Shown here one piece after another: positions 27,057 through 63,146 of a stretch of 64,000 nt of DNA. Source of the stretch: an uncultured Acidobacteriota bacterium (GTDB lineage: Bacteria > Acidobacteriota > Thermoanaerobaculia > Gp7-AA8); the NCBI GenBank assembly GCA_963822445.1, contig CAWGHO010000001.1, positions 352,001 through 416,000 on the forward strand, given 5' to 3'. Each line of letters opens with the position of its first letter. Position 1 is the first letter of the stretch. The notes under the pieces are model-generated. The model worked only from the letters and a program-made list of their open reading frames with translations. It was not told the DNA's origin and did not search any database. Position numbers and translations under genes: made by a program.

Positions 27057-28949
<1,893 letters not shown>

Positions 28950-31888: not shown

Positions 31889-31977
31889 AAGTCGCAGAGT
31901 CGCAGAGTCTCAGAGTCTCAGAGAGGAAAGCGTTGAGATCCTCTTTGAGACTCTGCGACTTTGAGACTCTGCGACTC
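31889..31977. repeat. Inverted tandem-octamer element (AGAGTCKC / GMGACTCT)
   Basis: aagtcgca gagtcgca gagtctca gagtctca gag, spacer, tgagactc tgcgactt tgagactc tgcgactc. Confidence 0.92.
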
Positions 31978-37483: not shown

Positions 37484-37683
37484 GAGTCTCCTCGGTGTGA
37501 TCTAAAGCTGCGACGATTGGAAGCGCCGCGGAGTTTCGCCGGATGGTAACACTGCACATTGGTTATACGCATGAACGCACGGGTCTGTTGGCTATACTCC
37601 CGGCCGAACGATTGCACCGCACCACCAGCGAAGTGCAACCGACCTGCAACATCCCGCCATCAATTCACTTTTCGGAGGTTGTC

Positions 37684-48228: not shown

Positions 48229-50804
48229 GGTACATTTCTTTCCCTTACCTGGAGGACCTCTCGTTGACCCGGACCCTGCTCGCCTCTCTTCTCCTTCTCG
48301 TTCTCGCCACCCCGGTTCTCGCCCAGCAATGTGACCTGCAGATCACCGCCACCTGTACACCGGGCGGCCACTGCACCAGCACCACGACCAACACCGGCCG
48401 CAACGCGTGCAGCGGCGTGTATTACATCGGCTGGATCGGCACCGATCCGACGGCGGCCGGCTCGCTGTCGGGCATCCAGAATTCGCTCGGCATCGACGAA
48501 TGCTTCGACACGAGCGACTTTCCGCCCGGCACGTTCCCGCAGGCGTTCGCCGTCTGCTTCGGCGAGGCGTCCCTCGCCGCCGGCGCCAGCTTCACCACGT
48601 CGGCGCGCATCACCGGCGCGAACGCGAACGTACCGCTGGTGGCCGTCACTCAGGTCATCGACCTGGAGGCCGGCGAAGCGCTTGCCGTGGTCCATGCGTT
48701 TGCGAACGCGGACGTGCCGTCGTGCAAACCGCGAATCAACGCGCCGGCCATCGCCCAGACCGGCGCCGACTACACGGTGTCCTGGTCGACCGTCGCCGAT
48801 CCGTCGGCGAGCTTCTTCGTCGAGGAATCGACGACGCCGGACTTCAGCGCCAATGTCGTGACCACCACAGTAAATGGCACTTCCAAGACCTTCCGCCACG
48901 ACGTCAGCACGGCGACGACCTACTACTACCGCGTGCGGCCGACGCAATGCGCCGGAGGTACCGCGGAGCATTCCGAGGTTGCTTCGACTGTCGTGCAGCC
49001 CCCGCCGCCGGTCGTTCGCGAGTCGGGTGAAGCCGCGGTGCCGCTTGGCAGCACGACACCGGTGCAGTTCCCGGTCTTCATCCCCGGTTTTGCGGGGAAC
49101 TCCACGCTCGCGACGACGACGTTCACAGCCTCCACCGACAAGTCCTTCCTGGCCGTGACCCCGAGCTCGGGAACGCTGCCGCCGGAAGGAACGACGGTCA
49201 CCGTCACCGCGAATCCAACCGGCCTGCAGGCGGGCGCGAATACCGGCTCGCTGAAGGTCACTGCCAACAACACCACCACCAGCATTCCCATCTCGATCAG
49301 CCTCGTGACACCGGTGCAGCCGGGAACGAAGAGCGTTCCCCCGTCGAATGCGCTGGTCATCCCCGTCGTCACGCACGTGCAGGGAGCGACCGGACCATTC
49401 CTCTCCGACGTCCGCCTCACCAACGCCTCGGCGAGCCTGCTGAAGTATCAGATCTCGATGACACCGACCGAGACCGATGCGACAAAGTTCAGCAAGGTCA
49501 CGACCGTCGACGTCGAGCCGCAGCAGACCATCGCCCTGAACGACATCGTGAAGAACTTCTTCGGCTTCGGCGCGACGACCGCGCCGGGCGATTTCGGGTT
49601 CGGCTCGCTGGAGATCCGGCCGCTGAACAGCTCCACGACGCAGACCTTCGCGTCGAGCCGCACCTACGCCAGCACGTCCACCGGCACCTTCGGCCAGTTC
49701 ATCGCCGCGGTGCCGTTCGGGCAGTTCATCACCCGGCGCTCCTCGGGCCTTCCGATTCCCGGCGAGCCCACCAGCAGCGCCGTCGTGTCGCTCCAGCAGA
49801 TCGCCCAGTCAGCGAAGTTCCGCACGAACCTCGGGCTGGTCGAAGGAGCCGGCGAAGCAGCCAGCGGCCGCATCCGCGTGTTCAACGACGCCGGAACGCT
49901 GCTGAAGGAACTGCCGTACAGCCTCCAGCCCGGCGAGCACAAACAGATGAACCGCTATCTGGAGGTGGAAGCGGGCATCACCAATCTCGAGGACGGCCGC
50001 ATCGAGGTCACCGTCGACTCGACCACGGGCGCGGTCACCGCCTACGCGTCCGTTCTCGACAACGTGACCACCGATCCCCTGGCCGTGATGCCGGTGGAAG
50101 TGTCGAAGGTCAGCGCCTCGCGTTACGTACTGCCGGGCATCGCCGAGCTTCCGGGCGAGAACAACTTCCACTCCGACATCCGCGTGTTCAACGGCGGCGC
50201 ATCGGACGTGGTGGCGAACTTCACCTACTACACCACCGGCATCGCGCCGATCAGCGCCGCACCGCGAACGATCAGGAAGGGCGAGGTCCTCGCGATCGAC
50301 AACGTGCTGCCCACGATGTTCAACCACAGCGGTACCGGCGGCTCGATCGTCATCACCACGAGCGGCAATTCGTCGCTCGTGGCCACGGCGCGCACGTACA
50401 CGAACGTCACCGGTGGCGGGACGTACGGGCAGTTCATCCCGGGCGTGACCCCGGACGAAGGGATCGGTCTGGGCGACGCTCCCCTCCAGGTCCTGCAACT
50501 CGAGCAATCAGACCGTTTCCGCTCCAACCTGGGCCTCGCCGAGTTGAGCGGCAATCCGGTCAGCCTGCGTCTCTCGGTGCATTTCCCCGACACGAAGATC
50601 ACGGCGTCGGTGCCGATCGATCTGGCGGCGAATGAGTTCGTCCAGCACGGCCGGATCATCGAGAACTTTTTCACCAACCCCGGCGATCAGACTTACAACG
50701 CGCGCATCACCGTGGAGGTGACCGGCGGCAGTGGACGCGTCACTGCTTACGGTTCGGTGATCGACAACAAGAGCAAAGACCCGACGTACGTTCCCGCGCA
50801 GTGA
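48225..50804 (+). CDS. Large secreted beta-rich protein: Cys-rich N-terminus, Fn3/BACON-like modules, duplicated C-terminal domain
   Basis: Signal peptide (VLA-Q), YYYRVRP, LAVTPSSGTL, two copies of RTY..GTxGQFI / FRxNLGL / AYxSVxDNxxxDP. Confidence 0.75.
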   Translation: MRYISFPYLEDLSLTRTLLASLLLLVLATPVLAQQCDLQITATCTPGGHCTSTTTNTGRNACSGVYYIGWIGTDPTAAGSLSGIQNSLGIDECFDTSDFPPGTFPQAFAVCFGEASLAAGASFTTSARITGANANVPLVAVTQVIDLEAGEALAVVHAFANADVPSCKPRINAPAIAQTGADYTVSWSTVADPSASFFVEESTTPDFSANVVTTTVNGTSKTFRHDVSTATTYYYRVRPTQCAGGTAEHSEVASTVVQPPPPVVRESGEAAVPLGSTTPVQFPVFIPGFAGNSTLATTTFTASTDKSFLAVTPSSGTLPPEGTTVTVTANPTGLQAGANTGSLKVTANNTTTSIPISISLVTPVQPGTKSVPPSNALVIPVVTHVQGATGPFLSDVRLTNASASLLKYQISMTPTETDATKFSKVTTVDVEPQQTIALNDIVKNFFGFGATTAPGDFGFGSLEIRPLNSSTTQTFASSRTYASTSTGTFGQFIAAVPFGQFITRRSSGLPIPGEPTSSAVVSLQQIAQSAKFRTNLGLVEGAGEAASGRIRVFNDAGTLLKELPYSLQPGEHKQMNRYLEVEAGITNLEDGRIEVTVDSTTGAVTAYASVLDNVTTDPLAVMPVEVSKVSASRYVLPGIAELPGENNFHSDIRVFNGGASDVVANFTYYTTGIAPISAAPRTIRKGEVLAIDNVLPTMFNHSGTGGSIVITTSGNSSLVATARTYTNVTGGGTYGQFIPGVTPDEGIGLGDAPLQVLQLEQSDRFRSNLGLAELSGNPVSLRLSVHFPDTKITASVPIDLAANEFVQHGRIIENFFTNPGDQTYNARITVEVTGGSGRVTAYGSVIDNKSKDPTYVPAQ

Positions 50805-50812
50805 TGGATGAG

Positions 50813-50841
50813 GGAAAGCGGCGGCACTGCCGCCGCTTTCC
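50813..50841. terminator. Perfect GC-rich hairpin (terminator or REP) at the left edge of the cluster
   Basis: ggaaagcggcggc-act-gccgccgctttcc. Confidence 0.6.
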
Positions 50842-50868
50842 GTTCCTTGGAGCAGTAGTATCTAGGGC

Positions 50869-51744
50869 ATGCTCGACGCGTCCGCCACCGTCGACCGCAC
50901 GCGGCCGTTCATCTGCGACACGCTCACGCCGCTGTACTACACGGCGTCCTGGGCTGAGCTCGAAGCGCAGGAGCGTCTGACCTACAACCAGCTCAACGGG
51001 ATGTACTGGAACGAGCTGATCGCCGCGTTCGAGAGGGAGATGGCGATCGCCGTGCTGAACGCGGCGGGTAAGCGCGGCGACCTGCCCGCGGCAATCCACG
51101 AGCGGCTCCGCGGTTTCGCGAATGACGAGATCGAACACGCGCGGGCGTTCGCGCGACTCAATCAGCTGAGCGACCCGCGCCGTTACGCGAACGGGGACCG
51201 CTCACTGCTGCGCCTTCCCCCGGGTGCCGGATTGCTCGTGCCGCTGCTCGCGGCGTCGTCTGCCGTCAGCGCGCTGGTGTGGCTGATGTTGCTGATCGAG
51301 GAACGCTCGATCGCCGTCACCGAGATCGCGGCACGCAATCCGGACCTCGATCCCGCGTATGCGACTGTGTATGCCGCGCACGCGGAAGACGAGCGGCGGC
51401 ACGTGGCCGTCGACGTGGAGCTGCTGGCGCTACTGCACGAGCGTCGCGGAGCAACCGTCCGCTCGCTGACCGCGACCGTCTTTCGCTCGCTCGTGCAAAG
51501 GTTCCTGGTCGGCCCGGGTCCCGCCGCGATGCGCATCCTCGATGCGCTGATCGCCAGCCATCCCCGCCTCGCACCACTGCGTCCTCGATTGCGCCGCGAG
51601 TTACGCGCGCTGACCAGCGACCGCGGCTATCACCGGATGATGTACTCGCGCGAGAAGGTGCCGATCACCTTCGGCCTCTTCGATCGCCTTCCCGAGATGC
51701 GCCGCATGCAATCGGTCCTCCTCGGCTACGAGGCCACGGCATGA
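50869..51744 (+). CDS. Ferritin-like diiron oxygenase (AurF-like)
   Basis: TPLYYT N-terminus; spaced ligands FE, DEIEH, IEER, EDERRH. Confidence 0.72.
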   Translation: MLDASATVDRTRPFICDTLTPLYYTASWAELEAQERLTYNQLNGMYWNELIAAFEREMAIAVLNAAGKRGDLPAAIHERLRGFANDEIEHARAFARLNQLSDPRRYANGDRSLLRLPPGAGLLVPLLAASSAVSALVWLMLLIEERSIAVTEIAARNPDLDPAYATVYAAHAEDERRHVAVDVELLALLHERRGATVRSLTATVFRSLVQRFLVGPGPAAMRILDALIASHPRLAPLRPRLRRELRALTSDRGYHRMMYSREKVPITFGLFDRLPEMRRMQSVLLGYEATA

Positions 51745-52655
51745 CCCGCCATCGAATCCCAGGTGTCGCCAACGCGCTCATCGCCGTCGTCCAAGTGGCC
51801 GTGGTCGCCGCTCTTCTGCAAGCATCCTCGGGCGCGCGCGGCTGGCGGCTGGCGCTTTTCGCCGCGGGCTTCGCCCTCGTGATGAACTCGGTCTACTCGA
51901 TCATTCACGAGGCCGAGCACGGCATTCTCTTTTCGCGGCGATCGCTCAATGACGCCGCCGGCGTGAGCATGGCGTTGCTCTTTCCCGCGCCGTTTCACCT
52001 GATCCGGCAGGGACACATCGGTCACCACCAGCGCAATCGCTCGGACGACGAGGCCTTCGATTTCTATTTCGAGGGGGAACATCCGCTGTGGAAGCGGATG
52101 CAGTTCTACGGAATCCTCACCGGCTTCTACTGGCTGGTGGTGGTGATCTCGAACCTAGCCGTTCTGCTCGTGCCGCGGCTGTTCGACCGGACCCGTTTCG
52201 AGTTCGATCGCCCGTCCGCGGCGTTCATGGACGCGCTCAATCCCGCGTATTGGCGATGGATTCGCGTCGAGGCAGTCGCGGCGATCGCGATCCACGCCGG
52301 CGCGATCTGGTTTCTCGGCGACCCTCTCGCATATGCGGTGTTGTACGCAGCTTGGGGCGTGTCGTGGTCGGCGATGCAGTACGTGCATCACTTCGGCACC
52401 GAGCGCGACGTCCTCGACGGTGCCCGCAATCTCCGCCTCCTCGGCCCCATCGACGCGCTCTGGCTCAATCACAACTGGCATCTCACCCATCACCGCCATC
52501 CCACCGTTCCCTGGCCTCACTTGCCGAAGGTTGCCGCTGAGGAACAGCAGGGGGAGCGGGGATTCCTGCCGGTGGCGTACTTCAGAATGTGGCGCGGCCC
52601 CCGATTCACCGACGTGCGAGTGAGGAACCGCTATGCAGGACGCATCGTCAATTGA
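51741..52655 (+). CDS. Membrane fatty-acid desaturase family protein
   Basis: His boxes HEAEH, HIGHH, HNWHLTHH plus QYVHH; TM helices; ATGA coupling. Confidence 0.88.
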   Translation: MTRHRIPGVANALIAVVQVAVVAALLQASSGARGWRLALFAAGFALVMNSVYSIIHEAEHGILFSRRSLNDAAGVSMALLFPAPFHLIRQGHIGHHQRNRSDDEAFDFYFEGEHPLWKRMQFYGILTGFYWLVVVISNLAVLLVPRLFDRTRFEFDRPSAAFMDALNPAYWRWIRVEAVAAIAIHAGAIWFLGDPLAYAVLYAAWGVSWSAMQYVHHFGTERDVLDGARNLRLLGPIDALWLNHNWHLTHHRHPTVPWPHLPKVAAEEQQGERGFLPVAYFRMWRGPRFTDVRVRNRYAGRIVN

Positions 52656-53328
52656 GCCGGTTCCGGTGATCGCGCTGCCGGTGTCGCGCCGGCTGGCGAT
52701 GCTGGTGATGGGCTATGTCTCACTGCTGCATCTCCTCGGATGCGTTGCGCTCCTTTTCGTGCCGCAGACGCCGGCCGTGCGCATCGGAGCATTCCTCGCC
52801 GCGCTCTACCTGCTTCCGCCGCTGGTCGCGCGGATCACGCTCGCGGTCGCGCCGCTCGAGCCGCGCGTGCACGGCATTCACGAGCGCGGATTTCTGGTCT
52901 GGTGGTGGACGCAGCAGTGGCAGACGCTCTTCAACCGCATTCCGCAACTCGAGGAGCTGCTGCGGCTCGTTCCCTCGCTCTACAGCGCCTGGCTGCGGCT
53001 CTGGGGATCGCGCGTGGGAAAGCTCGTGTACTGGGGGCCCGGCGTCACGATCCTCGACCGCCCGCTGATGATCATCGGCGACCAGGCCATGTTCGGCGCG
53101 GGCGTGCGCATGATCGCCCACATCGTCAATCGCACGGCCGACGGCCGCGTCGACGTGACCATTGCACCGGTGACCATCGGCTCGACCGCGATCGTCGGCG
53201 CGTACTCGCTCCTCGGACCGGGCGTGATCATCGGCGAGGGCGAGTCGACGCCCGCGGCGCTCCCGATGTCGCCGCATTCGGAGTGGCGCGGCGGACGGCG
53301 CATCGCCCGGAGACGCAATGCGCTCTGA
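52633..53328 (+). CDS. Membrane-anchored left-handed beta-helix acyltransferase-like protein
   Basis: Two N-terminal TMs, WLRLWGSRVG, hexapeptide repeats VTIGSTAIVGAYSLLGPGVIIG. Confidence 0.75.
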   Translation: MQDASSIEPVPVIALPVSRRLAMLVMGYVSLLHLLGCVALLFVPQTPAVRIGAFLAALYLLPPLVARITLAVAPLEPRVHGIHERGFLVWWWTQQWQTLFNRIPQLEELLRLVPSLYSAWLRLWGSRVGKLVYWGPGVTILDRPLMIIGDQAMFGAGVRMIAHIVNRTADGRVDVTIAPVTIGSTAIVGAYSLLGPGVIIGEGESTPAALPMSPHSEWRGGRRIARRRNAL

Positions 53329-53953
53329 GCTCGCGGCGCGGCTGCGCAGCGAGTGGCGGTACAAGCTTCTGCTCTCGATCGCGTTGCCGCTGTATTTCTG
53401 CGCGCTGTACTTCGCGCTGCAGCGGGTCGTGATCTTCACGCCGCGCGTGCTGTCGCTGACGGCGCTCGATCGCGCGGTGCCGTTCGACATCCGCTGGACG
53501 GCGGTTTATCAGTCGCTCTACCTCTTTCTGCCGATGCCCTGGCTCGCGGCGCGGCGCGAAGAGCTCCATCGCTACACGCGAGGCTTCTTCGCCTTCACCC
53601 TGATCAGCTTCGCCGCTTTCTACCTGGTGCCTGTCGCCGGCCCACGTCCGGTGAGCAGCGACAGCAACGTGCTCTATCAGTTGCTGATCACCTACGACCG
53701 CAATCTCAACGCCTTCCCCTCCCTCCACGCCGCGCTGGCCGTCTACACCCTCTTCCTCGGTGCACGGCTGCTGTCCCGTGCGCGAACGATGATCCTCGCC
53801 GCGGGCGGCGTCTGGTGCATGCTGATCCTCTATGCGACGCTCGCCACCAAACAGCACTACGCCGTTGACGTCGCGGCCGGAATCGCGCTCGCCGTCGCCG
53901 CCGACGCATTCGCCTGGGGATACACTCCGCTCACACAAGCAGAGGAGGTTTGA
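53318..53953 (+). CDS. PAP2 superfamily membrane protein (Aur1/Ipt1-like)
   Basis: NAFPSLH and TLATKQHYAVD catalytic motifs; about 6 TMs. Confidence 0.82.
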   Translation: MRSELAARLRSEWRYKLLLSIALPLYFCALYFALQRVVIFTPRVLSLTALDRAVPFDIRWTAVYQSLYLFLPMPWLAARREELHRYTRGFFAFTLISFAAFYLVPVAGPRPVSSDSNVLYQLLITYDRNLNAFPSLHAALAVYTLFLGARLLSRARTMILAAGGVWCMLILYATLATKQHYAVDVAAGIALAVAADAFAWGYTPLTQAEEV

Positions 53954-53954
53954 G

Positions 53955-54581
53955 ATGAGACAGATCCACGGATCCCGGATCGCGCTCGTTCTCCTGGTTC
54001 TTTTCGCGTTCCCGCTGATGGCCAGTGAAGAGGCGGATCACGAGGCGCTGCGGCAACTGCGCGCTCTGTACGAGAAGGCCGTCAACGAGGACCAGCTCGA
54101 CCTCCTCCGCCCGCACGTGGCCACGCCGCTGTATGGCGTGATGATCACCAGCAAGCGCGTATCGAGCGTCGACGACATGAAGCAGTACTGGGCGGCGATG
54201 AAGAAGCTGATGGGTCCGGGCAGTACGTATCAGGTCAAGGTCGAGCCCGAGCGGAGCGTGTTCATGGGCGACTTCGCGCTTGCCCGCGGCACGACCTCCG
54301 ATGTCGTCACCACCGGCAACGGCAAGACCTATCGCTTCGGCACGAACTGGACCGCCGTCCTCCGCCGTGACAACGGCGTCTGGAAGCTCGTGCAGGTGCA
54401 GGGCTCGATGGATCCGGTGAACAACGAGTTCGTGCGCACGTTCATGCGCGACGCAATCGTGAAATCGGCCGCCGCGGCGGGCATCGTCGGCCTGCTCATC
54501 GGTGTCTTCGCCGGATACCTCTTCGCAAGAAGGGGAGCGGGCGTCCCGCCCGCGTCGGTCGGGCGTCCCGCCCGATCGTAG
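53955..54581 (+). CDS. NTF2/SnoaL-like protein with signal peptide and C-terminal TM anchor
   Basis: GGAGG RBS; LRALYEKAVN...GDFALARG...WTAVLRRDNGVWKL; hydrophobic C-terminus. Confidence 0.75.
   Translation: MRQIHGSRIALVLLVLFAFPLMASEEADHEALRQLRALYEKAVNEDQLDLLRPHVATPLYGVMITSKRVSSVDDMKQYWAAMKKLMGPGSTYQVKVEPERSVFMGDFALARGTTSDVVTTGNGKTYRFGTNWTAVLRRDNGVWKLVQVQGSMDPVNNEFVRTFMRDAIVKSAAAAGIVGLLIGVFAGYLFARRGAGVPPASVGRPARS
54533..54577. repeat. Tandem REP-like hairpins (GGGCGTCCCGCCC x2)
   Basis: gcgggcgtcccgcccgc gtcgg tcgggcgtcccgcccga at a convergent gene junction. Confidence 0.75.
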
Positions 54582-54593
54582 AAGCGCACAACC

Positions 54594-55619
54594 TCAGAAC
54601 CGCAGCGTAACCACCGACGTCGACTCCTCCGTGGCCCGCGACGCCACGGCATCGCGCCACAGGCGAAGAATGCGGGGGCCGAGGAGGTCCGTTTCGGCGA
54701 AGGTGTAGCGGGGGGCGTCGAACCTTCGCAGATTCGCGGAATGCTCGGCGAGGATCTCCACGTCCTGGCGCAGGATGCGGCGCGACAGCGGCTCGAAGTA
54801 GAGCCTCACCAACGGCGCGATGGAGCCGTAGCGAAACGTGACCACCGTGTACACATCGGTCTCGTGCGCGGAGACCGGCGTGCACTGCGAGGTGATGATG
54901 AAGTGCCGCTCGCTGCTGAACGAATAATCGACGCGGCTGGTGGTGGGCATCACGAAGCGATCCGTGTGGGTGAGCTTTCCCGCCCTGGGAAAAAGCAGGC
55001 GCGCGACGACACTTCGCCGTTCCGGCTCTTCATCAAACTCCGCGACCGCGCCGTCGCGCTCCGTTCTCACCGTTGCCGTGGCCACGCGTGTCGCGCGCGT
55101 GCGGAAGAGTCCTCCGTGAACGTAGACCGTGTGCGGGACGTCGAGAAAATTCTCGAGACAGGCAAACGCGCTGGCCTCGAAGCGCGTGGTCATGCGGAAC
55201 GTCGTCCATCGGGGTTCATCGACGTTGGGAAAAACGAAAGGCTGCACCGCCGGCTCCCCTTCGCCCATGTAAATCCAGATGAAGCCTTGTTGTTCGCGAG
55301 CAGGAAACGACGGCACTTTCGCCTGAGGTAGGTCCTCACGCACGAGCGAAGGTGCCGCGGTGCACGTGCCGCGGCCGTCGAAGGTCCAGCCGTGGTACGG
55401 GCACTCGATGCCGTTCGCGGTCGTGCGGCCGGCGGAGAGGCGCATGTTGCGGTGCGCACAGCGATCGAGCAGCGCGGACGCAACGCCGTTTCCGTCGCGG
55501 AACAACACGATGGGCTGGCCGAGGATCGTGCGGCGGATGGGTTTGTGGCGAAGGGTTTGCGCGGTTGCCGCGATGTACCAATACCGAGTCAGACTGAGTG
55601 CCAGCTCCGATTCGGTCAT
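54594..55619 (-). CDS. Rieske non-heme iron oxygenase (VanA-like)
   Basis: CAH...CPYHGW Rieske motif; ENFLDVPHTVYVH mononuclear iron motif; QD near the C-terminus. Confidence 0.92.
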   Translation of the reverse strand: MTESELALSLTRYWYIAATAQTLRHKPIRRTILGQPIVLFRDGNGVASALLDRCAHRNMRLSAGRTTANGIECPYHGWTFDGRGTCTAAPSLVREDLPQAKVPSFPAREQQGFIWIYMGEGEPAVQPFVFPNVDEPRWTTFRMTTRFEASAFACLENFLDVPHTVYVHGGLFRTRATRVATATVRTERDGAVAEFDEEPERRSVVARLLFPRAGKLTHTDRFVMPTTSRVDYSFSSERHFIITSQCTPVSAHETDVYTVVTFRYGSIAPLVRLYFEPLSRRILRQDVEILAEHSANLRRFDAPRYTFAETDLLGPRILRLWRDAVASRATEESTSVVTLRF

Positions 55620-55643
55620 CGACGTTACTGTACGATACCGGAC
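55620..55643. promoter_or_regulatory. Overlapping back-to-back -10 elements in a 24-bp divergent gap
   Basis: TACGAT on + at 55631-55636 and TACAGT on - at 55627-55632, each 7 nt from its ATG. Confidence 0.55.
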
Positions 55644-56249
55644 ATGCTCCCCGTGCGGCCGTTCCTTGCCGCGGCGTCAGGTCTGGCGCTGACGGCAGCG
55701 ATCTTCTTCTGGCGGCAGAATTTCGGAGGGCAGATCGGCGGGGAGATGTCCCTCGCCAAGATCCTCTGGCTCCACTACACCATCCTGGCCTGGTTCGTCC
55801 TGCCGGCGTTTCTGTGCCGTTCGCCGCTGCTGCCGCGCCCCTGGCGGCGCGTCTTCGCGGCCCATCTGATCAACTTCAGCGCGCGCGCGGTGATCGAGCT
55901 GTTCCTGCTGTACGTGACGGTCAGCTGGAGCCCGCTCTACGGCATCGTCCACGACCTTTTCTCGATCGCCCTCATCGCCGTGCTCGCGCGCGACGCGGCG
56001 GTTACCAGCGAACATGCTGTATTGGCGCGGCGGTTCTCGTGGACGCTGCGCGTGACGCTGGTCTGCGAGATCGTTTTCGCGGCGATGTTCTTCGTCGCCC
56101 AGGCCGGACAACGCGATCTCTACTTCGCCAGCGACGATCCCCGATTCCGCCTGATCAACGCGCTGACGACCATCGTCGACCTCGCCGTTTACACAGATCT
56201 GTTCCTGCTGCTGCGCCGCGCCCTGATCCGGGAGCCCCAGCGTGTCTGA
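55644..56249 (+). CDS. Hypothetical integral membrane protein
   Basis: About 6 hydrophobic helices; QNFGGQIGGEMSLAK and WSPLYGIVHD segments; overlaps the next gene. Confidence 0.7.
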   Translation: MLPVRPFLAAASGLALTAAIFFWRQNFGGQIGGEMSLAKILWLHYTILAWFVLPAFLCRSPLLPRPWRRVFAAHLINFSARAVIELFLLYVTVSWSPLYGIVHDLFSIALIAVLARDAAVTSEHAVLARRFSWTLRVTLVCEIVFAAMFFVAQAGQRDLYFASDDPRFRLINALTTIVDLAVYTDLFLLLRRALIREPQRV

Positions 56250-56982
56250 GGAAACGCTCACCAGCGCGGTGATCCCTGCATCGCGCGTCGATCGGGATGC
56301 CCTCTTCACGATCTTCGAGGCGAATTACGACCGCGCCGATCGCGCGCGATTCGAAGAGGACCTCGACGGCAAGGACGCGGTGATCGTGCTGCGGCGCTCC
56401 GATGGCTCGATCGCCGGATTCTCGACGCAGGCCGTCTTCGAAGTCCTGCACGAGAACCGCCGCGTACGCGTGCTCTTCTCCGGCGACACGATCATCGATC
56501 CGCGCAACTGGGGCACGCAGGAGCTCGTGCGGGCGTGGTGCCGTTTCGCCGGAACGGTCAAAGGCGAAACACCCGATCTGCCGCTGTACTGGCTGCTCAT
56601 TTCGAAGGGCCACCGGACGTACCTGTATCTCCCCTTCTTTTTCCACCGCTTCTTCCCTTCGTGCGAGCACGTGCCGCCGGCCTTCGAGCAGTCACTCATG
56701 CACCGGCTCGGAACGAAGCGCTTCGCCGATCGTTATGACGCGCGGACCGGCTTGATCGATGCCGATGCACCGCTCGATCGCCTCCGTCCGGAGATCGACT
56801 CCGCGCCGCAGCGCGCGCACAACCGCCACGTCGCGTTTTTTCTCGAGCGCAACCCGCGCTACGCGGACGGCGTGGAGCTGCTGTGCCTCACGGAGATCGA
56901 TCCGTCGAACATGCGCTCGTTCGCCCGGCGTGAAGCGGAGCGCGGGATGGCCGAGGTCGTGGAGCTGGCGGGGGTGCGGTGA
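56242..56982 (+). CDS. Hypothetical protein with probable GNAT-like fold
   Basis: IAGFST, LFSGDTIIDPRNWG, YWLLISKGHRTY; fold assignment is inference. Confidence 0.65.
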   Translation: MSEETLTSAVIPASRVDRDALFTIFEANYDRADRARFEEDLDGKDAVIVLRRSDGSIAGFSTQAVFEVLHENRRVRVLFSGDTIIDPRNWGTQELVRAWCRFAGTVKGETPDLPLYWLLISKGHRTYLYLPFFFHRFFPSCEHVPPAFEQSLMHRLGTKRFADRYDARTGLIDADAPLDRLRPEIDSAPQRAHNRHVAFFLERNPRYADGVELLCLTEIDPSNMRSFARREAERGMAEVVELAGVR

Positions 56983-58454
56983 GAACGGCCGTTGAGCGAT
57001 GGCTCGCGACCGGCGAGCAGGGCGCGGCGCGTTTCTCCGCTGCGGTTCACCATCCGCGCGTTGCGCAGGAGCAGATTCTGCTCGAGACGCTACGCGCGAA
57101 TGCGAACAGCGAATACGGTCGGCGGTTTGGATTTGGCGCGATTCGCTCTGTCGCCGAGTACCAGCGCCACGTTCCGATCGTCACGTACGACGACATCGAA
57201 GACGACGTGATGCGGAACGTGCTCACCAGTGAGCCCGCGGTCATGTTCGAGAAGACTTCCGGCTCGACATCGGCGGCGAAGTACATCCCCTTCACCGAGT
57301 CGCTGCGAAGACAGTTTCTGAACGGCGTGTCGGCGTGGATGCGCGATTTGTACGGCGCGCACCCGGAATTGAAGCAGGGCCGCGCCTACTGGTCACTCTC
57401 CCCGCTCGCCGCCGATCGCGAGATGACCAGCGGCGGATTGAAGGTTGGATTCGAAGACGATCGCGACTACTTCGCTGGCGAGGCCCGGGAGGCACTGGGT
57501 GAGATCCTCGTCCGGCCGCGGCTCCGTGATCAGTACGGAACCCTGCGAGCGCTTGCCGGGGAAGAGTCGCTCGCGTTCATCTCCATCTGGAATCCGACAT
57601 TCCTCACGGCGATGCTGGCGCGGCTCGAGGAGTGGAGCGAGCGGATCGTCGCGGAGACCGCGAACCCCCGTCTGCATCGACTGCTCGCTCGCGACGGACG
57701 GCTCATTCCGCACCACGTCTGGCCCAATCTGCGGGTGATCAGCTGTTGGACCCACGCCGCCGCCGCACTCGCCGTTCCAAGGCTCGCGGCGATCTTTCCA
57801 AACGTCGAGCTGCAGCCGAAAGGGTTGCTTGCAACGGAAGGTGTCGTCTCGATTCCCATCACCGCCGCCGGCGGCGCGGTACTGGCGATCACCTCTCATT
57901 TCCTCGAGTTCCTCGACGAGCGCGGCGACACCCATCTCGCCGATGAGTTGCGCGAGGGCCACGAATACCGCGTCCTCCTCACAACCGCCGGCGGCCTGTA
58001 TCGCTACGACCTCGGCGACATCATCTGCGTAACCGGCCTCTTCGCATCGACGCCGATCGTCGAGTTCGTCGGCCGCGCGGGCGACGTGAGCGATCTCTGC
58101 GGCGAGAAACTGTCGGAAGCGTTCGTCGGTGCCGCGCTGGCACGGGAGCGGATCGATGCGGCATTGCTCTTCCTCGCGCCCCGCGAGGGCAATCCGCCGC
58201 GCTACGCGCTGTTCGCCGAGACCAATGCGCCGATCGACGCGGACCGGATCGACACGGCGTTGCGCGCGAACCCGCACTATCGCTTCTGCCGCGATGCGGG
58301 ACAGCTCGCGCCCATCGAAGTCGTCCGGCTGCGGCAAGGTGCGGCGGAAACGTATCTGCGCCTCCGCGCGGGAAGCGGCAGAACAGGCGACGTGAAACCG
58401 CGCTCGCTCGAACGGAACGCCGACTGGCTGACGGCGCTGGAGGCCGCGTCGTGA
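56979..58454 (+). CDS. GH3 family acyl-adenylating enzyme
   Basis: TSGSTSAAKYIP, LLATEG, GGLYRYDLGD, DLCGEKLSE. Confidence 0.9.
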   Translation: MRTAVERWLATGEQGAARFSAAVHHPRVAQEQILLETLRANANSEYGRRFGFGAIRSVAEYQRHVPIVTYDDIEDDVMRNVLTSEPAVMFEKTSGSTSAAKYIPFTESLRRQFLNGVSAWMRDLYGAHPELKQGRAYWSLSPLAADREMTSGGLKVGFEDDRDYFAGEAREALGEILVRPRLRDQYGTLRALAGEESLAFISIWNPTFLTAMLARLEEWSERIVAETANPRLHRLLARDGRLIPHHVWPNLRVISCWTHAAAALAVPRLAAIFPNVELQPKGLLATEGVVSIPITAAGGAVLAITSHFLEFLDERGDTHLADELREGHEYRVLLTTAGGLYRYDLGDIICVTGLFASTPIVEFVGRAGDVSDLCGEKLSEAFVGAALARERIDAALLFLAPREGNPPRYALFAETNAPIDADRIDTALRANPHYRFCRDAGQLAPIEVVRLRQGAAETYLRLRAGSGRTGDVKPRSLERNADWLTALEAAS

Positions 58455-59530
58455 CGCGTTACGTCGTCGAGCTCGCGCGAAACGAGGACGACGCCGCCCT
58501 GCGCGGCCTGCTCGCGCGCAACTCGATGGCCGGACCGATCGAGCTGGCCTTTCTGCGCGAGCCCGGATACTTCCTCGCGTCCCCCGTTCAGGCCCCGCGA
58601 CACCAGATCATCGTCGCGCGCGACGGCAAGGAAGTCGTCGGCGCTGCATTCCGCGGCATCCGCAAGACCTGGCTCAATGGCCAGGTTCGCGACGCCGGCT
58701 ACCTCGGCGATCTCCGCCTCGACGTAGCCCACCGCGGCGGCTCGCTGGTCGCCCGCGGCTATCGCTTTCTGCGCGAGTTGCACGCTGACCGCGGCGCGTC
58801 GCTGTACCTGACTCTCATCGCCGGCGCGAATGAAATCGCGCTGAAGACGATCGCCGCAGGCCGCGCCGGCCTGCCGTCGTACAAGCCACTGGGCCGGATC
58901 TTCACCCCAGCGGTGCGGCTGAGTGGATGGTCGAAGAAACCGGCGCGAATCAAGATCGTGCGCGGCAGTGAAGTCAGCCGAGGCGAGCTCGCGGCGTGCC
59001 TTCAACGGAATCTCGCCCGCCGCCAGTTCGCGCCGTTCCTCGATCTCGAGACGCGCTTTCCCGGTCTGACCCTCGACGATTTCGCGGTCGCCGTGCGCGA
59101 TGGGAAAGTGATCGGCGCGGTCGCGGCGTGGGATCAGAACGCATTCCGGCAGACGCGTGTCGTTCGCTACCGCGGAACGGTGCGGGCGGGACGGCCGCTG
59201 TACAACCTCGTGGCGCCGCTGCTCGGCACGCCGCGCTATCCGAAGCCGGGCGAAACGCTGCGATTCTTCTACGCGTCCTTCGTCGCCATCGATGACGACG
59301 ATCCGGAAGTCTTTCGCGCTTTGCTGGCGCGTCTCGCAGCCGACCGCGCCGGGCGTTACCACTATTTCGTGGTCGGACTGCACGAGCGCGATCCGCTGCT
59401 GCCGGTCGTGAATCAGTTGCCGAGAACGCCATTCACCGCGCATGCGTTCGCCGTCCATTTCGAGGACGGCCTGGAGGATTTCGAATCGCTCGACGGACGC
59501 GTGCCGTACGTCGAGCCGGCCATGCTATGA
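58451..59530 (+). CDS. GNAT-like protein (probable tandem GNAT fold)
   Basis: FLREPGYF, GYLGDLRLDVAHRGG, AAWDQNAFRQ. Confidence 0.7.
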   Translation: MTRYVVELARNEDDAALRGLLARNSMAGPIELAFLREPGYFLASPVQAPRHQIIVARDGKEVVGAAFRGIRKTWLNGQVRDAGYLGDLRLDVAHRGGSLVARGYRFLRELHADRGASLYLTLIAGANEIALKTIAAGRAGLPSYKPLGRIFTPAVRLSGWSKKPARIKIVRGSEVSRGELAACLQRNLARRQFAPFLDLETRFPGLTLDDFAVAVRDGKVIGAVAAWDQNAFRQTRVVRYRGTVRAGRPLYNLVAPLLGTPRYPKPGETLRFFYASFVAIDDDDPEVFRALLARLAADRAGRYHYFVVGLHERDPLLPVVNQLPRTPFTAHAFAVHFEDGLEDFESLDGRVPYVEPAML

Positions 59531-62256
59531 GCACGCTCACCGCCGACACACCGCTTTCCACACCGCAGGTAACCGCGGCCGCGAGACGTCTCGACGCGCG
59601 GATTCCGTTCGCGATCCTGCTGACGCTCTACGCCGTCGCGGGCGTGACCGTTCTGCGCTTCAACCGCACGCCGCTGCAAATGCTCATCACCGTCTCCGCG
59701 ACCTGTGCACTGGACATGTTCTTCGCGCGCGTCATCCGCCGCGAGAAGCTCGTCCCGCTCAGCGCCTACATCAGCGGCCTCTCGCTCGCGCTGCTCCTCA
59801 ACTACGCGCACGACAGCTGGATTCTGCTTCTTCCGGTCTTCCTGACCATCGCCTCCAAGTACGTCCTCACGTTCGAAGGGCGCCATGTCTTCAACCCGTC
59901 GATGTTCGGAGTCGCGGTCTCGCTGCTGATCGGCGGAGACCTCATCACCACCGCGCCCGCGTATCAGTGGGGCGGCGGCGCGGCCGGCACGTGGGCGATG
60001 TCCGCATTCCTGGCCGCCGCCGCGCTCTCGCTTTTCGTCTTCCGCGTCGGACGCGCGCCGCTGATCGTCTCCTTCCTCGGCTTCTACGCCATCCAGATTC
60101 TGCTGCGCGCCTACTGGATGCGCTGGTACCTGCCGCCGGAGTCGCTGATCCTCGGCACGCTCACCAGCGCACCGTTCTTCCTCTTCGTCTTCTACATGAT
60201 CACCGACCCCAAGACTTCGCCGGCCAGGCCGCGCGATCAGGTCCTGCTCGCGTTCGGGCTCACCGTCGTCGATCTTCTGTTTCACACGCGCGGCAGCCTC
60301 TACACCTTCTTCTACGCCGCGCTGGTCGTCGCATCCGCGCGTTTCGTCTTCCTTCACCTCCGCCGCAGACGATTCGCATTCAACGCCCGCGCATGGACCG
60401 TCGTCGCCGCAACCGGCGCGGTGATGATCGCGACGTACGCGATAACCGTGCAGCCCTTCGCCGCACCGCCGCCGCTCACATTCGACTTGGTGAAGCTCGA
60501 TCCACTGCAGACCGGCGTGGCGCCGAAACTCGACGGCTCGATCATCAACGAGGCCGATCCGCGCGTGCGTCACATCGCCAAGTGGCTCCTCTCCGCGGGT
60601 GACGCGGCAGCCGCGGCGGACTTCGACAACGACGGCCGGCTGGACCTCTTTCTCTGCGGTCCCTTCAAGACCGTCGACGACCGGGCTATCCTCTATCGCG
60701 GCACCGGGGCGATGACGTTCGAGCGCGTCCGCGTACCGGCGCTCGAGAAAATCGTCGCCGACCCGCGCCGCTTCGGCATCATCTCCAGCGGCTCGTTCGT
60801 CGATCTCGACAACGACGGCGATCGCGACCTCTTCCTCACCGTCGGTTACGGCCGCAGCATCCTTCTGCGCAACGACCTTACCGAGCGCGGCGTGGCGGAG
60901 TTCGCCGAGGTTGCGGATGCGGGGACGGGCGATTACTCGATCAGCATCGCCGCGAACTTCCTCGACTTCGACAACGACGGAAAGCTCGACGTCTTCGTCG
61001 CCAACGCTCTCGATCCGATGCTCCGCAAATACGACCCGCCGCGGCCGCTGAGCATCTTCGCGCTCGAGCAACCGGAGCATCCCGGCGACCGCCGCATGCT
61101 GCCGTTCATGCACAGCAGCTGGGACAACGCGCGAAACGGCGGCCCTAACGTCCTCTACCGCAACCAGGGCGCCAACCGCTTCACGCGCGTCGATCCGGGC
61201 ATGCCCGAAACGCACTGGAGCCTGTCGGTGGCGACGGCGGACTTCAACGGCGACGCGCGCACCGATCTCTACGTCGCCAACGACTTCGGTCCCGACGACT
61301 TCTATCTGAATGAAGGGAAGGGGCGCTTTCGCAAGATCGAAGGGCGCATCGCCGGCGAGATCAGTCACGACACGTACAAAGGCATGAACGCGTCGCAGGG
61401 CGACGTCGACCGCAATGGCCATCCCGACGTGTATGTGTCGAATGTGCACATGCCGCTGCAGGCCGAAGGAAGCCTGCTGTGGATGACCTACCCGGGGCGC
61501 GATGGCGTGCCGGAGCTGCGCGACGAGGCCAATCAACGCGGCGCGCTCAACGAGCATCGCTTCGGCTGGGGCGGGGCGATGGGCGATCTCGACAACGACG
61601 GCTGGCTCGACATCGTCCAGGCCAACGGCATGATCGACGACGCGTTCGACAGGAAATTCGAGCAGTGCCGGGATTACTGGTACGTCAACGAGAAGCTGAT
61701 GCGCTCCGGCCCGGAGATTCACACCTACGCGGACAAGTGGGGCGATCTGCGCGGCTACTGCATCAACGGGCGCGAGTCGAATCGCGTGTACCTCAGCCGT
61801 GGCGATCGCGAGCGGCTGCAGTTCGCCGACGTCGCCCCGCGCCTCGGCTGGAAGGACGAGCCTCCATCGCGCGGCGTCCTCCTCGCCGACTTCGACGACG
61901 ACGGCGATCTCGACCTGGGCATGACCCACATCACCGCGCCGATCACGCTGTACCGCAACACGCGCAATGAGCGGGGCGGGCGGTGGATCGGCTTCGACGT
62001 CCGCGGAAACGGAACGACGTGCAATCGCGACGCGGCCGGCACGCGAGTAACCATCTCCTATCCGGAAAACGGACGTACCGTGACCCAGATGCGCGAGATC
62101 TCGATCGTCAACGCGTTCGCCGCCCAGGGCGATCGCCGCGCGCTCTTCGGCCTCGGCGACTACAAAGGCGACGTCGACGTGACCATCTCCTGGTGCGGCC
62201 GCAGCGAGACCCGGATGCGCGTCAACACGAATCGCTATCACGTGATCCAACAATGA
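59527..62256 (+). CDS. Fusion: RnfD/UnbU-like membrane domain + FG-GAP/CRTAC1 propeller + ASPIC/UnbV domain
   Basis: IASKYVL...RHVFNPSMFG and FYMITDPKTSP; about 7 DxDNDGxxD repeats; NRDAAGTRV...QMREI...LFGLG. Confidence 0.88.
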   Translation: MSTLTADTPLSTPQVTAAARRLDARIPFAILLTLYAVAGVTVLRFNRTPLQMLITVSATCALDMFFARVIRREKLVPLSAYISGLSLALLLNYAHDSWILLLPVFLTIASKYVLTFEGRHVFNPSMFGVAVSLLIGGDLITTAPAYQWGGGAAGTWAMSAFLAAAALSLFVFRVGRAPLIVSFLGFYAIQILLRAYWMRWYLPPESLILGTLTSAPFFLFVFYMITDPKTSPARPRDQVLLAFGLTVVDLLFHTRGSLYTFFYAALVVASARFVFLHLRRRRFAFNARAWTVVAATGAVMIATYAITVQPFAAPPPLTFDLVKLDPLQTGVAPKLDGSIINEADPRVRHIAKWLLSAGDAAAAADFDNDGRLDLFLCGPFKTVDDRAILYRGTGAMTFERVRVPALEKIVADPRRFGIISSGSFVDLDNDGDRDLFLTVGYGRSILLRNDLTERGVAEFAEVADAGTGDYSISIAANFLDFDNDGKLDVFVANALDPMLRKYDPPRPLSIFALEQPEHPGDRRMLPFMHSSWDNARNGGPNVLYRNQGANRFTRVDPGMPETHWSLSVATADFNGDARTDLYVANDFGPDDFYLNEGKGRFRKIEGRIAGEISHDTYKGMNASQGDVDRNGHPDVYVSNVHMPLQAEGSLLWMTYPGRDGVPELRDEANQRGALNEHRFGWGGAMGDLDNDGWLDIVQANGMIDDAFDRKFEQCRDYWYVNEKLMRSGPEIHTYADKWGDLRGYCINGRESNRVYLSRGDRERLQFADVAPRLGWKDEPPSRGVLLADFDDDGDLDLGMTHITAPITLYRNTRNERGGRWIGFDVRGNGTTCNRDAAGTRVTISYPENGRTVTQMREISIVNAFAAQGDRRALFGLGDYKGDVDVTISWCGRSETRMRVNTNRYHVIQQ

Positions 62257-63146
62257 CAACGCCGTTCAACAACCCGGACCTGCACGTCGAGAGCTGGTAC
62301 GTGGCCATGCCGTCGCGCGAGCTCGCACGGGGGAAAGCGAAAACGCTCGACGTTCTGAACCGCAAGATCGTCTTCTTCCGCGGTGAAGACGGGACTGTCC
62401 GCGCGCTCGACGCACGCTGCCCGCACCTAGGCGCGGACCTCGGCATCGGCACCGTGGAGGGCAACCGCATCCGCTGCGCGTTTCACGGCTGGACGTTCGA
62501 TGGCGATGGGCATTGCGCGAATGCGCGCGCCGTCGCGTACCCGGTCGAGGAGCGCCACGGCGCGATCTGGTTCTTCAACGGCGCACGCGCCTCATTCGAG
62601 GTTCCGGCGTTCGCCTCGAACGACCGCGTGGTGATGCTGAAGCCGCAAGTCATCCACTGCCATCCGCATCTGATCGCCTGCAACGGCCTCGACCTCGATC
62701 ACTTCGCGACGTTGCACGAAATCGCCTTTCTCGACGAGCCTCGCTTCGAACAGCCCGATGCGTTTCGCACGCGGATGCGCATGCGGTTGCGTTTCACCGG
62801 CAACGGCCTGATCGACCGCATGCTCCGTTCGCTGGGCGGCAACGACGTCACGGTCGCGTTCACGACCTGGGGCGGGAACATCGCCACGATCGACGGCTCG
62901 CTCGGCCGCATCCCCATCCGCGTGCTCTTCTCCCACCGCCCCATCCTCGGCCGCAACAGTCTTTCGCGCACATTCGTGTTCGTGCCGACACGCTTCATGT
63001 TGCCGGTGGTGCTGATGGTTCTCGCGCGAATCGTCGTCGGCGACCGTGAGCTGCTCGACCGCCTCGATTTCCGCGAGAACCTCACCAGCCGGGACTGGGC
63101 ATTGGCCGCGTTCATCGAGCAGGTGAACGCGATGCCTGTGCACTGA
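62253..63146 (+). CDS. Second Rieske non-heme iron oxygenase
   Basis: CPHLGADL...CAFHGW; NGLDLDHFATLH; ATGA coupling. Confidence 0.88.
   Translation: MTTPFNNPDLHVESWYVAMPSRELARGKAKTLDVLNRKIVFFRGEDGTVRALDARCPHLGADLGIGTVEGNRIRCAFHGWTFDGDGHCANARAVAYPVEERHGAIWFFNGARASFEVPAFASNDRVVMLKPQVIHCHPHLIACNGLDLDHFATLHEIAFLDEPRFEQPDAFRTRMRMRLRFTGNGLIDRMLRSLGGNDVTVAFTTWGGNIATIDGSLGRIPIRVLFSHRPILGRNSLSRTFVFVPTRFMLPVVLMVLARIVVGDRELLDRLDFRENLTSRDWALAAFIEQVNAMPVH

Follow-up and report, generated by a model that had tools for sequence, protein, structure and literature searches.

This report concerns a block of 12 genes (G01 to G12; Table 1) at positions 50869–63146 of a 64,000-nucleotide stretch of DNA, here called the window, which comes from an uncultured Acidobacteriota bacterium of the Thermoanaerobaculia (positions 352,001–416,000 of contig CAWGHO010000001.1, assembly GCA_963822445.1). 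The block is built around a triad in which the gene of a GH3-family ligase (G09) lies between those of a GNAT-fold protein (G08) and a tandem GNAT protein (G10). The 12 genes may well be one functional unit, in which a widespread cassette with G08-G09-G10 as its core takes its most elaborate aerobic form, because the intergenic space is close to zero, five gene pairs overlap by four nucleotides (nt), the triad recurs in other genomes, natural gene fusions exist, and the two groups into which an initial annotation had divided the block (arm 1, G01 to G05; arm 2, G07 to G12; G06 between them) occur together elsewhere. The reading favoured here for its function, over which belief and doubt are about evenly balanced, is a membrane-associated pathway to an N-acyl amide of the aminolipid type, combining oxidative tailoring with phospho-headgroup chemistry.

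G09 contains all three Pfam domains of the GH3 family (GH3, 126.2 bits; GH3_M, 57.7 bits; GH3_C, 24.9 bits; PF03321, PF23571 and PF23572), each above the cut-off of 23.6, and its profile matches the plant GH3 structures with an E-value of 3e-34. GH3 enzymes work in two steps, adenylation and then amidation. The motifs TSGS93, ATEG285 and YRYDLGD341 of G09, which are invariant or nearly so in an alignment of 20 sequences, are those that we take to be the nucleotide motifs of the family, as defined in the GH3 literature and in the discussion of the paper on the bacterial enzyme OlsH. With the three domains above the cut-off and the motifs intact, the GH3 ligase of the initial annotation is confirmed.

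The AlphaFold2 models of G08 and G10, computed from alignments of 54 and 52 sequences, have predicted local distance difference test (pLDDT) values of 94.5 and 95.2, respectively. G08 belongs to no Pfam or NCBIfam family and its family profile has no match in the PDB, although its predicted structure matches AAC(2')-Ia and other GNATs in a Foldseek search of the PDB (best E-value 7e-5; TM-scores 0.37–0.55); ESM Atlas look-ups returned 'GNAT' only. The model of G10 retrieves N-myristoyltransferases (NMTs) first (E-value ~1e-12, TM-score ~0.6), followed by the Eis-like and MAB_4324 tandem GNATs, while its sequence reaches 18.9 bits for the Pfam family Acetyltransf_1, below the cut-off of 20.7, and has no Pfam NMT match. 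The N-terminal half of G10 is homologous to the G08 profile (hhalign 93.6%, E-value 2e-7). The predicted GNAT folds and the Foldseek matches agree with the label 'GNAT-like' that both proteins had been given. A predicted complex of the GH3 protein with G08, prompted by natural fusions of the two, scored 0.02, a value that counts neither for nor against binding. When a hidden Markov model (HMM) of the G08 family was run against 1.84 billion representatives of 50%-identity clusters, 2624 matched at an E-value of 1e-3 or below and 931 at 1e-30 or below, and the cassette is therefore common.

The recurrence of the cluster was examined in loci collected by a search for GH3 homologues, based on G09 aligned with 19 homologues and covering one genome per species, which returned at least 599 pattern stretches and at least 594 confirmed relatives. 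The best 80 of these relatives were kept, each with up to 10 kb on either side, and are designated by L-numbers, while P-numbers denote proteins of the representative library, among them a 74%-identical relative, P0002. The window's own genome is outside the 80 loci; the best match is 53% identical, and the closest related locus is L003, from a metagenome-assembled genome (MAG) of the Thermoanaerobaculia. The presence of the 12 proteins and of the two flanking genes, scored by tblastn, is given in Table 1. With the flanking genes as control, the cluster recurs beyond chance. In the 34 loci that extend at least 8 kb to both sides of the GH3 gene, G08 is present in all 34 and G10 in 30, and the conserved core is therefore G08-G09-G10.

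Eleven of the 12 families are found together on one strand in L002 (a Chthoniobacter MAG) and in L037 and L044 (Planctomycetota MAGs), all three with a single Rieske gene in place of two; the order in L002 is G06-G07-G08-GH3-G10-G11-G01-G02-G03-G04-G05. L013 (Udaeobacter) contains both Rieske types and three of the five arm-1 families, with no match for G03 or G05 and with a different gene order. The two arms, whose co-occurrence elsewhere the initial annotation had left to be checked, are thus found together in Verrucomicrobiota and Planctomycetota (L002, L037 and L044, and partly L013). The division into arms does not itself stand: the conserved unit is the GNAT-GH3-tandem-GNAT triad with exchangeable tailoring modules, and since G12-type orthologues elsewhere usually come after G01-G02 (L013, L028), the line drawn between the arms is not a natural one. 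Moreover, P0229, found like the other library fusions among the best 150 matches of the G08 HMM, consists of PAP2_3, FA_desaturase and a G08 GNAT in one chain, with identities of 36% to G04 (E-value 3e-13), 40% to G02 (E-value 2e-42) and 36% to G08, so that arm 1 is physically tied to arm 2.

These arrangements bear on the proposal that the block consists of at least two independent adjacent operons (a lipid-modifying arm 1 and a GH3-containing arm 2), or of a catabolic or detoxifying set acting on an exogenous compound. Such a proposal would account for the inverted G06 that splits the arms, for the lack of the arm-1 families in most triad loci, and for the O-demethylase-like Rieske relatives, which are typical of catabolism. 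It is nevertheless very improbable, as the arms stand together on one strand and in another order in two other phyla, P0229 joins domains of both in a single chain, G12 (arm 2 here) follows G01-G02 (arm 1 here) in L013 and L028, and the anaerobic form described below does not look catabolic.

G08 is fused to GH3 in L003, L052, P0177, P0191, P0257 and P0003, and it is also fused to an MMPL transporter (P0265), a JmjC/cupin oxygenase (P0176) and Lnb_N (P0245), while L053 contains a fusion of PAP2 with FA_desaturase. A Pfam scan of 285 representative open reading frames (ORFs) located no more than 4 kb from the triad genes in the related loci identified neighbours of lipid type, including FA_desaturase, FA_hydroxylase, PhyH, P450 and MMPL (L055 and L065), and no polyketide synthase (PKS), nonribosomal peptide synthetase (NRPS) or acyl carrier protein (ACP). 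L059 encodes an acyl-ACP thioesterase and a fusion of an Aas-like acyltransferase with an AMP-ligase, and L038 an acyl-CoA thioesterase. In the loci of Acidobacteriaceae MAGs (L016–L018, L032 and L052), a second FA_desaturase, a P450, a MatE exporter and an FA_hydroxylase replace the arm 1 of the window.

In anaerobes, the same core would be tailored by cobalamin-dependent radical-SAM enzymes in place of the O2-dependent iron enzymes. Clustering of 1089 ORFs (of at least 90 amino acids) from the 80 loci gave a B12-binding radical-SAM family of 112 members, which occurs in 40 loci with one to five members per locus, typically in the order of three radical-SAM genes, G08, GH3, two radical-SAM genes and G10. 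This form is found in Ruminococcus, Ruminiclostridium, Eubacterium, Fibrobacter and other anaerobes (L009–L011, L020–L021, L026, L031, L040, L048–L051, L058–L060, L066, L068, L071 and L074–L078), and some of these loci also carry a SPASM radical-SAM gene and small families of ~150 and 224 amino acids. The few of the 80 loci whose record titles do not mark them as MAGs, for example L077 and L078, have this anaerobic form. The tailoring set consists of radical-SAM enzymes only in 30 of the 80 loci, of O2-dependent iron enzymes only in 27, of both in 10 and of neither in 13, several of the last being short contigs. In a FastTree phylogeny, built without bootstraps from 70 GH3 rows (the window and 69 loci, 11 loci having been excluded because their GH3 ORF did not cluster at full length), the window falls in a clade of 17 rows with a support of 97; 15 of these rows are of the O2 type, one has both sets, and the last comes from a 2.5-kb contig. 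The tailoring labels are clustered on this tree, none of 500 shuffles giving as low a value.

None of the radical-SAM proteins reaches any NCBIfam cut-off, and their matches, all far below the cut-offs, are equally close to models of ribosomally synthesized and post-translationally modified peptide (RiPP) C-methyltransferases, hopanoid enzymes, BchE and lipid enzymes. The first of these could suggest that the cassette modifies a protein or peptide (a lipidated RiPP or a lipoprotein), with G10 and G08 acylating its N-terminus or a side chain, the GH3 enzyme ligating a carboxylate, and the radical-SAM or iron enzymes tailoring residues, which would also suit the protein N-myristoyltransferases as the best structural matches of G10 and the G08-Lnb_N fusion P0245. 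However, the RiPP matches are among many others, lie far below the cut-off and are no nearer than the hopanoid, BchE and lipid ones, and among the 1089 clustered ORFs there is neither a conserved family of small ORFs nor a protease or RiPP recognition element. A protein or peptide substrate is accordingly improbable, and the RiPP version was set aside because the gaps of at most 24 nt in the cluster leave no space for a precursor-peptide gene.

Putative tailoring, headgroup and envelope genes

The region 50869–63146 is filled by the 12 intact ORFs, with gaps of no more than 24 nt throughout, the largest being that between the divergent G06 and G07; G06 is the only one of the 12 genes on the minus strand. 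Start and stop codons overlap by four nucleotides as ATGA at 51741, 59527 and 62253 and as GTGA at 56979 and 58451, and there are three more gene overlaps of 23, 11 and 8 nt. The 12 intact ORFs and the five four-nucleotide overlaps, at exactly these positions, had been noted in the initial annotation, and both hold. The starts of G06 and G07 are 24 nt apart (48 nt in the closest relative, L003, at 1990–3058 of that locus), and both promoters must therefore sit within coding sequence. Pfam and NCBIfam reveal no PKS, NRPS or ACP domain in any of the 12 proteins, in accordance with the earlier statement, and the Pfam, NCBIfam and fold evidence likewise upholds the family calls made earlier, with the exception of LbH for G03 and UnbU for G11.

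Table 1. Features of the 12-gene cluster and of its surroundings in the window, and number of the 80 related loci in which each protein is matched.
Feature	Positions	Strand	Length (amino acids)	Assignment	Related loci
G01	50869–51744	+	291	Soluble AurF/CmlI-like diiron oxygenase; Pfam AurF 34.6 bits (cut-off 29.6)	9/80
G02	51741–52655	+	304	Membrane diiron enzyme of the fatty-acid desaturase/hydroxylase family; FA_desaturase (PF00487) 98.8 bits; ATGA overlap with G01	20/80
G03	52633–53328	+	231	Putative membrane-anchored LbH-type acyltransferase, weak assignment; Hexapep 26.0 bits (cut-off 27)	4/80
G04	53318–53953	+	211	PAP2_3 (Aur1-like) lipid phosphate phosphatase or phospho-headgroup transferase; 55.1 bits	8/80
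G05	53955–54581	+	208	NTF2/SnoaL-like; SnoaL_3 23.3 bits (cut-off 22), DUF4440 23.7 bits (cut-off 25.2)	12/80
G06	54594–55619	-	341	Rieske non-haem iron oxygenase, alpha3 type; Rieske 73.5 bits, VanA_C 43 bits	
G07	55644–56249	+	201	Five predicted transmembrane segments; no Pfam or NCBIfam family	14/80
G08	56242–56982	+	246	GNAT fold with C-terminal helical extension; first member of the triad	73/80
G09	56979–58454	+	491	GH3-family adenylating acyl-acid amido synthetase; GTGA overlap with G08	
G10	58451–59530	+	359	Tandem GNAT with N-myristoyltransferase-like fold; third member of the triad	64/80
G11	59527–62256	+	909	RnfD/NqrB-like polytopic membrane domain, FG-GAP beta-propeller and UnbV/ASPIC C-terminal domain	17/80
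G12	62253–63146	+	297	Second Rieske non-haem iron oxygenase, divergent catalytic domain; Rieske 81.5 bits	
Rieske protein (G06/G12 type)					34/80
U1 (flanking control)	48225–50804	+	859	Secreted Thr/Ser-rich protein	0/80
D1 (flanking control)					1/80
GC-rich hairpin	50810–50844	+		Just 3' of the stop codon of U1 (50804); left edge of the cluster	
Tandem-array pairs	28050–28130, 28963–29042, 30364–30484, 31890–31976, 42216–42310			Five pairs of short tandem arrays	
Imperfect tandem array	19461–19584			12/24/36-nt units	
Aerotolerance-like operon	40709–47449	-		BatA-D/MoxR/DUF58 type	
Angiotensin-converting enzyme homologue	37543–39579	+		Peptidase_M2, full length	

The cluster encodes four iron-dependent oxidative enzymes (G01, G02, G06 and G12), as had been proposed, all of which match their families and have intact metal motifs. 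As a single sequence, G01 retrieves nothing useful from the PDB, but its profile of 10 sequences matches AurF 3chh (E-value 8e-5), 5hyg (E-value 7e-4) and also 2jcd, and its ExxH and HxxxExxH motifs line up with those of 3chh in the profile alignment. Residues E55, E87, H90, E144/145, H171, E175 and H178 are invariant in the 10 sequences, and G01 contains the seven-ligand diiron pattern E, ExxH, E, HxxxExxH, with two ExxH, which we take to be the pattern of AurF itself. G02 contains three histidine boxes (HEAEH56, HIGHH92 and HLTHH247) and four predicted transmembrane segments.

G06 contains the Rieske motif CxH..CxxH at residue 54 and the motif DVPHTVYVH at residue 160, and its solved relatives in the PDB (DdmC, NdmA/B, SxtT and KshA) are alpha3 Rieske monooxygenases; in NCBIfam it has a weak match to SdmA (92.7 bits against a cut-off of 600). 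Its orthologues, with identities of 41–64%, are located directly upstream of the triad in L002–L007, L013 and L016, and its orientation in the window is inverted with respect to most of the other loci examined. G12 contains CxH..CxxH at residue 56 and DLDHFATLH at residue 147, and resembles G06 over the Rieske domain only (36% identity over 107 amino acids).

Transmembrane segments are predicted in six of the 12 proteins, namely G02, G03, G04, G05, G07 and G11. G03, with two such segments at its N-terminus, matches the terminal domain of the Pls/PosA NRPSs in NCBIfam over residues 6–205 (39.6 bits against a cut-off of 423) and has further weak matches to WcaF and maltose O-acetyltransferase; together with the Hexapep score below the cut-off, these make the LbH acyltransferase of the initial annotation a weak call. 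G04, with four transmembrane segments, contains PSLH134 (motif C2) and HYAVD180 (motif C3), while KxxxxxxRP (motif C1) is absent, and it has a weak match to the NCBIfam phosphoinositol dihydroceramide synthase (25.4 bits, cut-off 480). G05, which is preceded by the Shine-Dalgarno-like sequence aggagg, contains a signal-like N-terminal hydrophobic segment (residues 9–27) and a C-terminal transmembrane segment (residues 167–185).

G11 contains about eight to nine predicted N-terminal transmembrane segments and, in Pfam, NQR2_RnfD_RnfE (45.5 bits, cut-off 27.7), FG-GAP_3 (123 bits over six stretches) and UnbV_ASPIC (35.6 bits, cut-off 23.4). The UnbV half of the fusion originally described here is therefore upheld, since UnbV_ASPIC and FG-GAP are above the cut-off; a profile search with the N-terminal domain gave no match. 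Full-length orthologues of G11 are 51–62% identical and adjoin G06 or G10. L005, L037 and L044 each encode a fusion of a G07-like membrane domain with a homologue of the FG-GAP propeller of G11, which ties G07 to G11; a relationship of G07 with the membrane domain of G11 was rejected.

Candidate products of the pathway

By its family membership and intact motifs, G09 adenylates a carboxylic acid with ATP and joins it to an amine, forming an amide. By analogy with OlsH, and in view of the lipid-type neighbours, either a free fatty acid may serve as the acid or an amino acid or amino alcohol as the acceptor, which would give an N-acyl amide lipid. G08 and G10, to judge from their predicted folds, could add further acyl groups from thioester donors, G10 by means of an NMT-type pocket for long acyl chains. 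The scaffold would be tailored at or in the membrane by the O2-dependent G01, G02, G06 and G12 and might be further acylated by the membrane LbH enzyme G03, while the Aur1-like PAP2 protein G04 may add or remove a phospho-headgroup on the outer face, and the exported G05 with the membrane-propeller proteins G07 and G11 may handle or present the lipid in the envelope, the membrane or periplasmic placing of these later steps resting on topology predictions only.

An N-acyl amide lipid is suggested because of the precedent of OlsH, the NMT-like fold of G10, the PAP2, desaturase and MMPL fusions, and the lipid-type neighbours. A membrane-associated acyl amide or lipid had been put forward in the initial annotation as well; its membrane link is strengthened by the transmembrane predictions and by the MMPL-G08 and PAP2-desaturase-G08 fusions, while the lipid product is one that we, too, infer. 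We agree with the earlier statement that the product is not predictable from the sequence.

Several observations weigh against an N-acyl amide lipid made by a 12-gene unit. G09 is equally far from OlsH (52.5 bits, cut-off 620) and from the plant GH3s, and since the latter conjugate small aromatic or jasmonate acids, G09 may use an acyl substrate other than a fatty acid. Those relatives of the tailoring enzymes whose structures are solved likewise have small soluble substrates (p-aminobenzoate for AurF, dicamba for DdmC, caffeine for NdmA and saxitoxin precursors for SxtT), and the MatE exporters in the Acidobacteriaceae loci would fit a small secreted molecule. Regular-expression matching identified no canonical Q/RxxGxG/A coenzyme A motif in G08 or G10, although degenerate versions, RNWGTQ in G08 and RGGSLVA in G10, were read by eye at the expected place in the translations. 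Pfam and NCBIfam identify no gene for fatty-acid synthesis, ACP or an acyl donor in the cluster, and neither the 12 proteins nor the two flanking genes contain a flavin reductase or ferredoxin domain that would provide the Rieske and diiron enzymes with a reductase or ferredoxin partner. The exact set of 12 genes occurs in none of the 80 loci, the best of which have 11 of the 12 families, and only a minority of loci have arm-1 families next to the triad, as the counts for G01, G04 and G03 in Table 1 illustrate. Finally, nearly all of the related loci are from MAGs, some with taxon labels that appear to be mis-binned, and the evidence is wholly computational.

Some of these points lend themselves to a different product from the same cassette, a small secreted or soluble metabolite such as an N-oxygenated or hydroxamate acyl amide (an amphiphilic siderophore), a signalling N-acyl amide or an antibiotic, which the membrane proteins would export. 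Hydroxamate siderophore pathways combine an N-oxygenase, GNAT acyltransferases and an adenylating amide ligase, a logic that the cluster could follow with G01, an AurF/CmlI-type N-oxygenase whose ligand set is complete, its GNATs and its GH3 enzyme. Small-molecule substrates are also used by the Rieske relatives DdmC, NdmA and SxtT and, as small acids, by plant GH3s, and MatE, MarR and ABC genes are found in several related loci. On the other hand, the putative N-oxygenase stands beside the triad in only nine of the 80 loci, PAP2_3 and a membrane desaturase are fused directly to the core GNAT in P0229, MMPL fusions and MMPL neighbours exist, and the 285 neighbour representatives scanned contain no TonB-dependent receptor or siderophore-uptake gene. 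A small metabolite is hence rather unlikely.

The N-acyl amide lipid remains the favoured product. Modification of hopanoids or sterols, prompted by weak matches to SdmA, HpnJ and HpnR and by the MMPL fusions, was set aside, as these matches are far below the cut-off and Clostridia, which are not known to make hopanoids or sterols, have the triad as well.

A wider interpretation, which we offer tentatively and with more doubt than confidence, is that the triad may be the core of an unrecognised pathway family, present in at least 15 phyla by record titles, for a new class of amide-linked envelope lipids, in which two tailoring dialects act on one scaffold and of which the window would be the fullest aerobic form, with a phospho-headgroup step and a membrane-propeller handling module. 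The analysis defines a distinct clade of GH3 enzymes that travels with two GNAT partners, and around this triad O2-dependent and O2-independent tailoring sets are interchangeable. Should the product be an envelope lipid, Acidobacteriota, Verrucomicrobiota, Planctomycetota and gut Clostridia would gain a new class of lipids, and the exchange of tailoring sets would be a rare case of substitution between aerobic and anaerobic enzymes in lipid tailoring. The cluster lacks the PKS, NRPS and carrier-protein domains on which rule-based cluster finders usually anchor, and the triad offers a concrete three-gene target for heterologous expression.

Edges of the cluster and neighbouring features

The hairpin that had been reported at the left edge is strongly folded: the 71 nt of 50800–50870 give -35.7 kcal/mol (z-score -4.15), and none of 200 shuffles was equally stable. 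A pattern scan for promoters and terminators identified fewer terminator-like sites than in shuffles and none at the left edge, the hairpin being missed for lack of a T-run. Scanning of the entire 64 kb with Rfam gave no family at the gathering score, and no tRNA, riboswitch or small RNA. Upstream of the hairpin, the protein encoded by U1 has Ig-like and BACON matches below the threshold only.

Within the cluster, a repeat search revealed nothing beyond the FG-GAP repeats and the two Rieske motifs. The 'microsatellite elements' said to be missing from the cluster, presumably the five paired tandem arrays of Table 1, are indeed absent from 50869–63146, paired tandem repeats of 7–8 nt being found only elsewhere in the window. 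The two arrays of a pair are ~50 nt apart and consist of two to eight copies of units of 7–8 nt or of 16-nt double units. At least in the pair at 28963/29012, the two arrays are reverse complements of one another (AAGGCTCA / TTGAGCCT), and each pair could therefore form a long hairpin built of repeats. The imperfect array at 19461–19584, with ~10 copies of CGGCGTGGTCGG and 71–76% matches, is probably a coding repeat.

Two further features of the window lie upstream of U1. The aerotolerance-like operon contains genes for MoxR (AAA_3), DUF58, two VWA proteins, a TPR protein and BatD, and the bacterial homologue of angiotensin-converting enzyme matches Peptidase_M2 with an E-value of 1e-220. The named relatives nearest to the MoxR protein, at 79–82% identity, belong to Thermoanaerobaculia/Acidobacteria and, like the Thermoanaerobaculia MAG of L003, point to an Acidobacteriota genome of that class as the most likely source of the window.

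Comparison with known systems

Bacterial GH3 enzymes number in the thousands, and OlsH alone has a known function. In the available text of a 2025 report on the OlsH/OlsI ornithine-lipid pathway of Singulisphaera acidiphila (PMC12493201), OlsH is the only characterised bacterial GH3 and ligates a free fatty acid to ornithine with ATP, and its operon also contains olsI, encoding an alpha/beta-hydrolase O-acyltransferase, and often the methyltransferase gene olsG. OlsH shares the GH3 fold with G09 and, by the same text, requires nothing besides ATP, Mg2+, a free acid and an amine, with no ACP or coenzyme A (PMC12493201), an independence that fits the present cluster because such genes are absent from the 12. 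As an expression host, E. coli is reported there to be limiting (PMC12493201). However, the OlsH model (NF052613) matches G09 in two partial stretches only, with the score given above, and no OlsI- or OlsG-type domain is present in any of the 12 proteins. Orthology of G09 with OlsH was rejected, as the score is far below the cut-off and the gene context is different. 'GNAT' and 'acetyltransferase' do not occur in the available text of that report (PMC12493201), and G08, G10 and the tailoring genes are peculiar to the present cluster.

The plant GH3s (JAR1, GH3.5/3.6/3.12) have the same Pfam domains as G09 and match it over the full length of their structures (E-value ~3e-34), but they are stand-alone, hormone-conjugating enzymes, whereas the gene of G09 is translationally coupled, and sometimes fused, to GNATs. 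AurF and CmlI are related to G01 by a Pfam score above the cut-off and by profile matches to 3chh, 2jcd and 5hyg with aligned ligand motifs; they differ in that the similarity is very low (25 bits against AurF), that G01 is coupled to a gene of the membrane desaturase family, and that no genes of an aromatic-amine pathway are nearby.

Similar limits apply to the headgroup and acyl-transfer proteins. G04 shares with the Aur1/inositol phosphorylceramide synthase group the PAP2_3 match, motifs C2 and C3 and the polytopic topology, while C1 is missing; its score against the bacterial phosphoinositol dihydroceramide synthase stays far from the cut-off of that model, and, sphingolipid genes, that of serine palmitoyltransferase included, are absent from the cluster. 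The terminal domain of Pls/PosA aligns with G03 over the transmembrane segments and the beta-helix as one repeat, although G03 is a stand-alone protein that has neither adenylation nor thiolation domains and scores well below the cut-off of the Pls/PosA model. G10 resembles the NMTs, the Eis-like proteins and MAB_4324 in its predicted two-GNAT fold, but the sequence identity is 9–13%, with no Pfam NMT match. G11 has the FG-GAP repeats and C-terminal UnbV_ASPIC domain of the CRTAC1/ASPIC-UnbV propellers, from which it differs in being anchored by an RnfD/NqrB-like domain, the propellers of Planctomycetota having a G07-like anchor.

As to whether the set matches a characterised cluster, a question raised in the initial annotation, the full-text literature searched gave only the OlsH/OlsI pathway, which shares the GH3 fold alone, and no description of a GH3-GNAT triad or of a GH3/radical-SAM operon, a provisional result for which subscription journals, MIBiG/antiSMASH and collections of metagenome and viral contigs were outside the scope. 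The enzyme families and GH3-dependent lipid amidation are already known, while the cassette itself, the GNAT partners of its GH3 enzyme and its dual tailoring sets are provisionally considered new.

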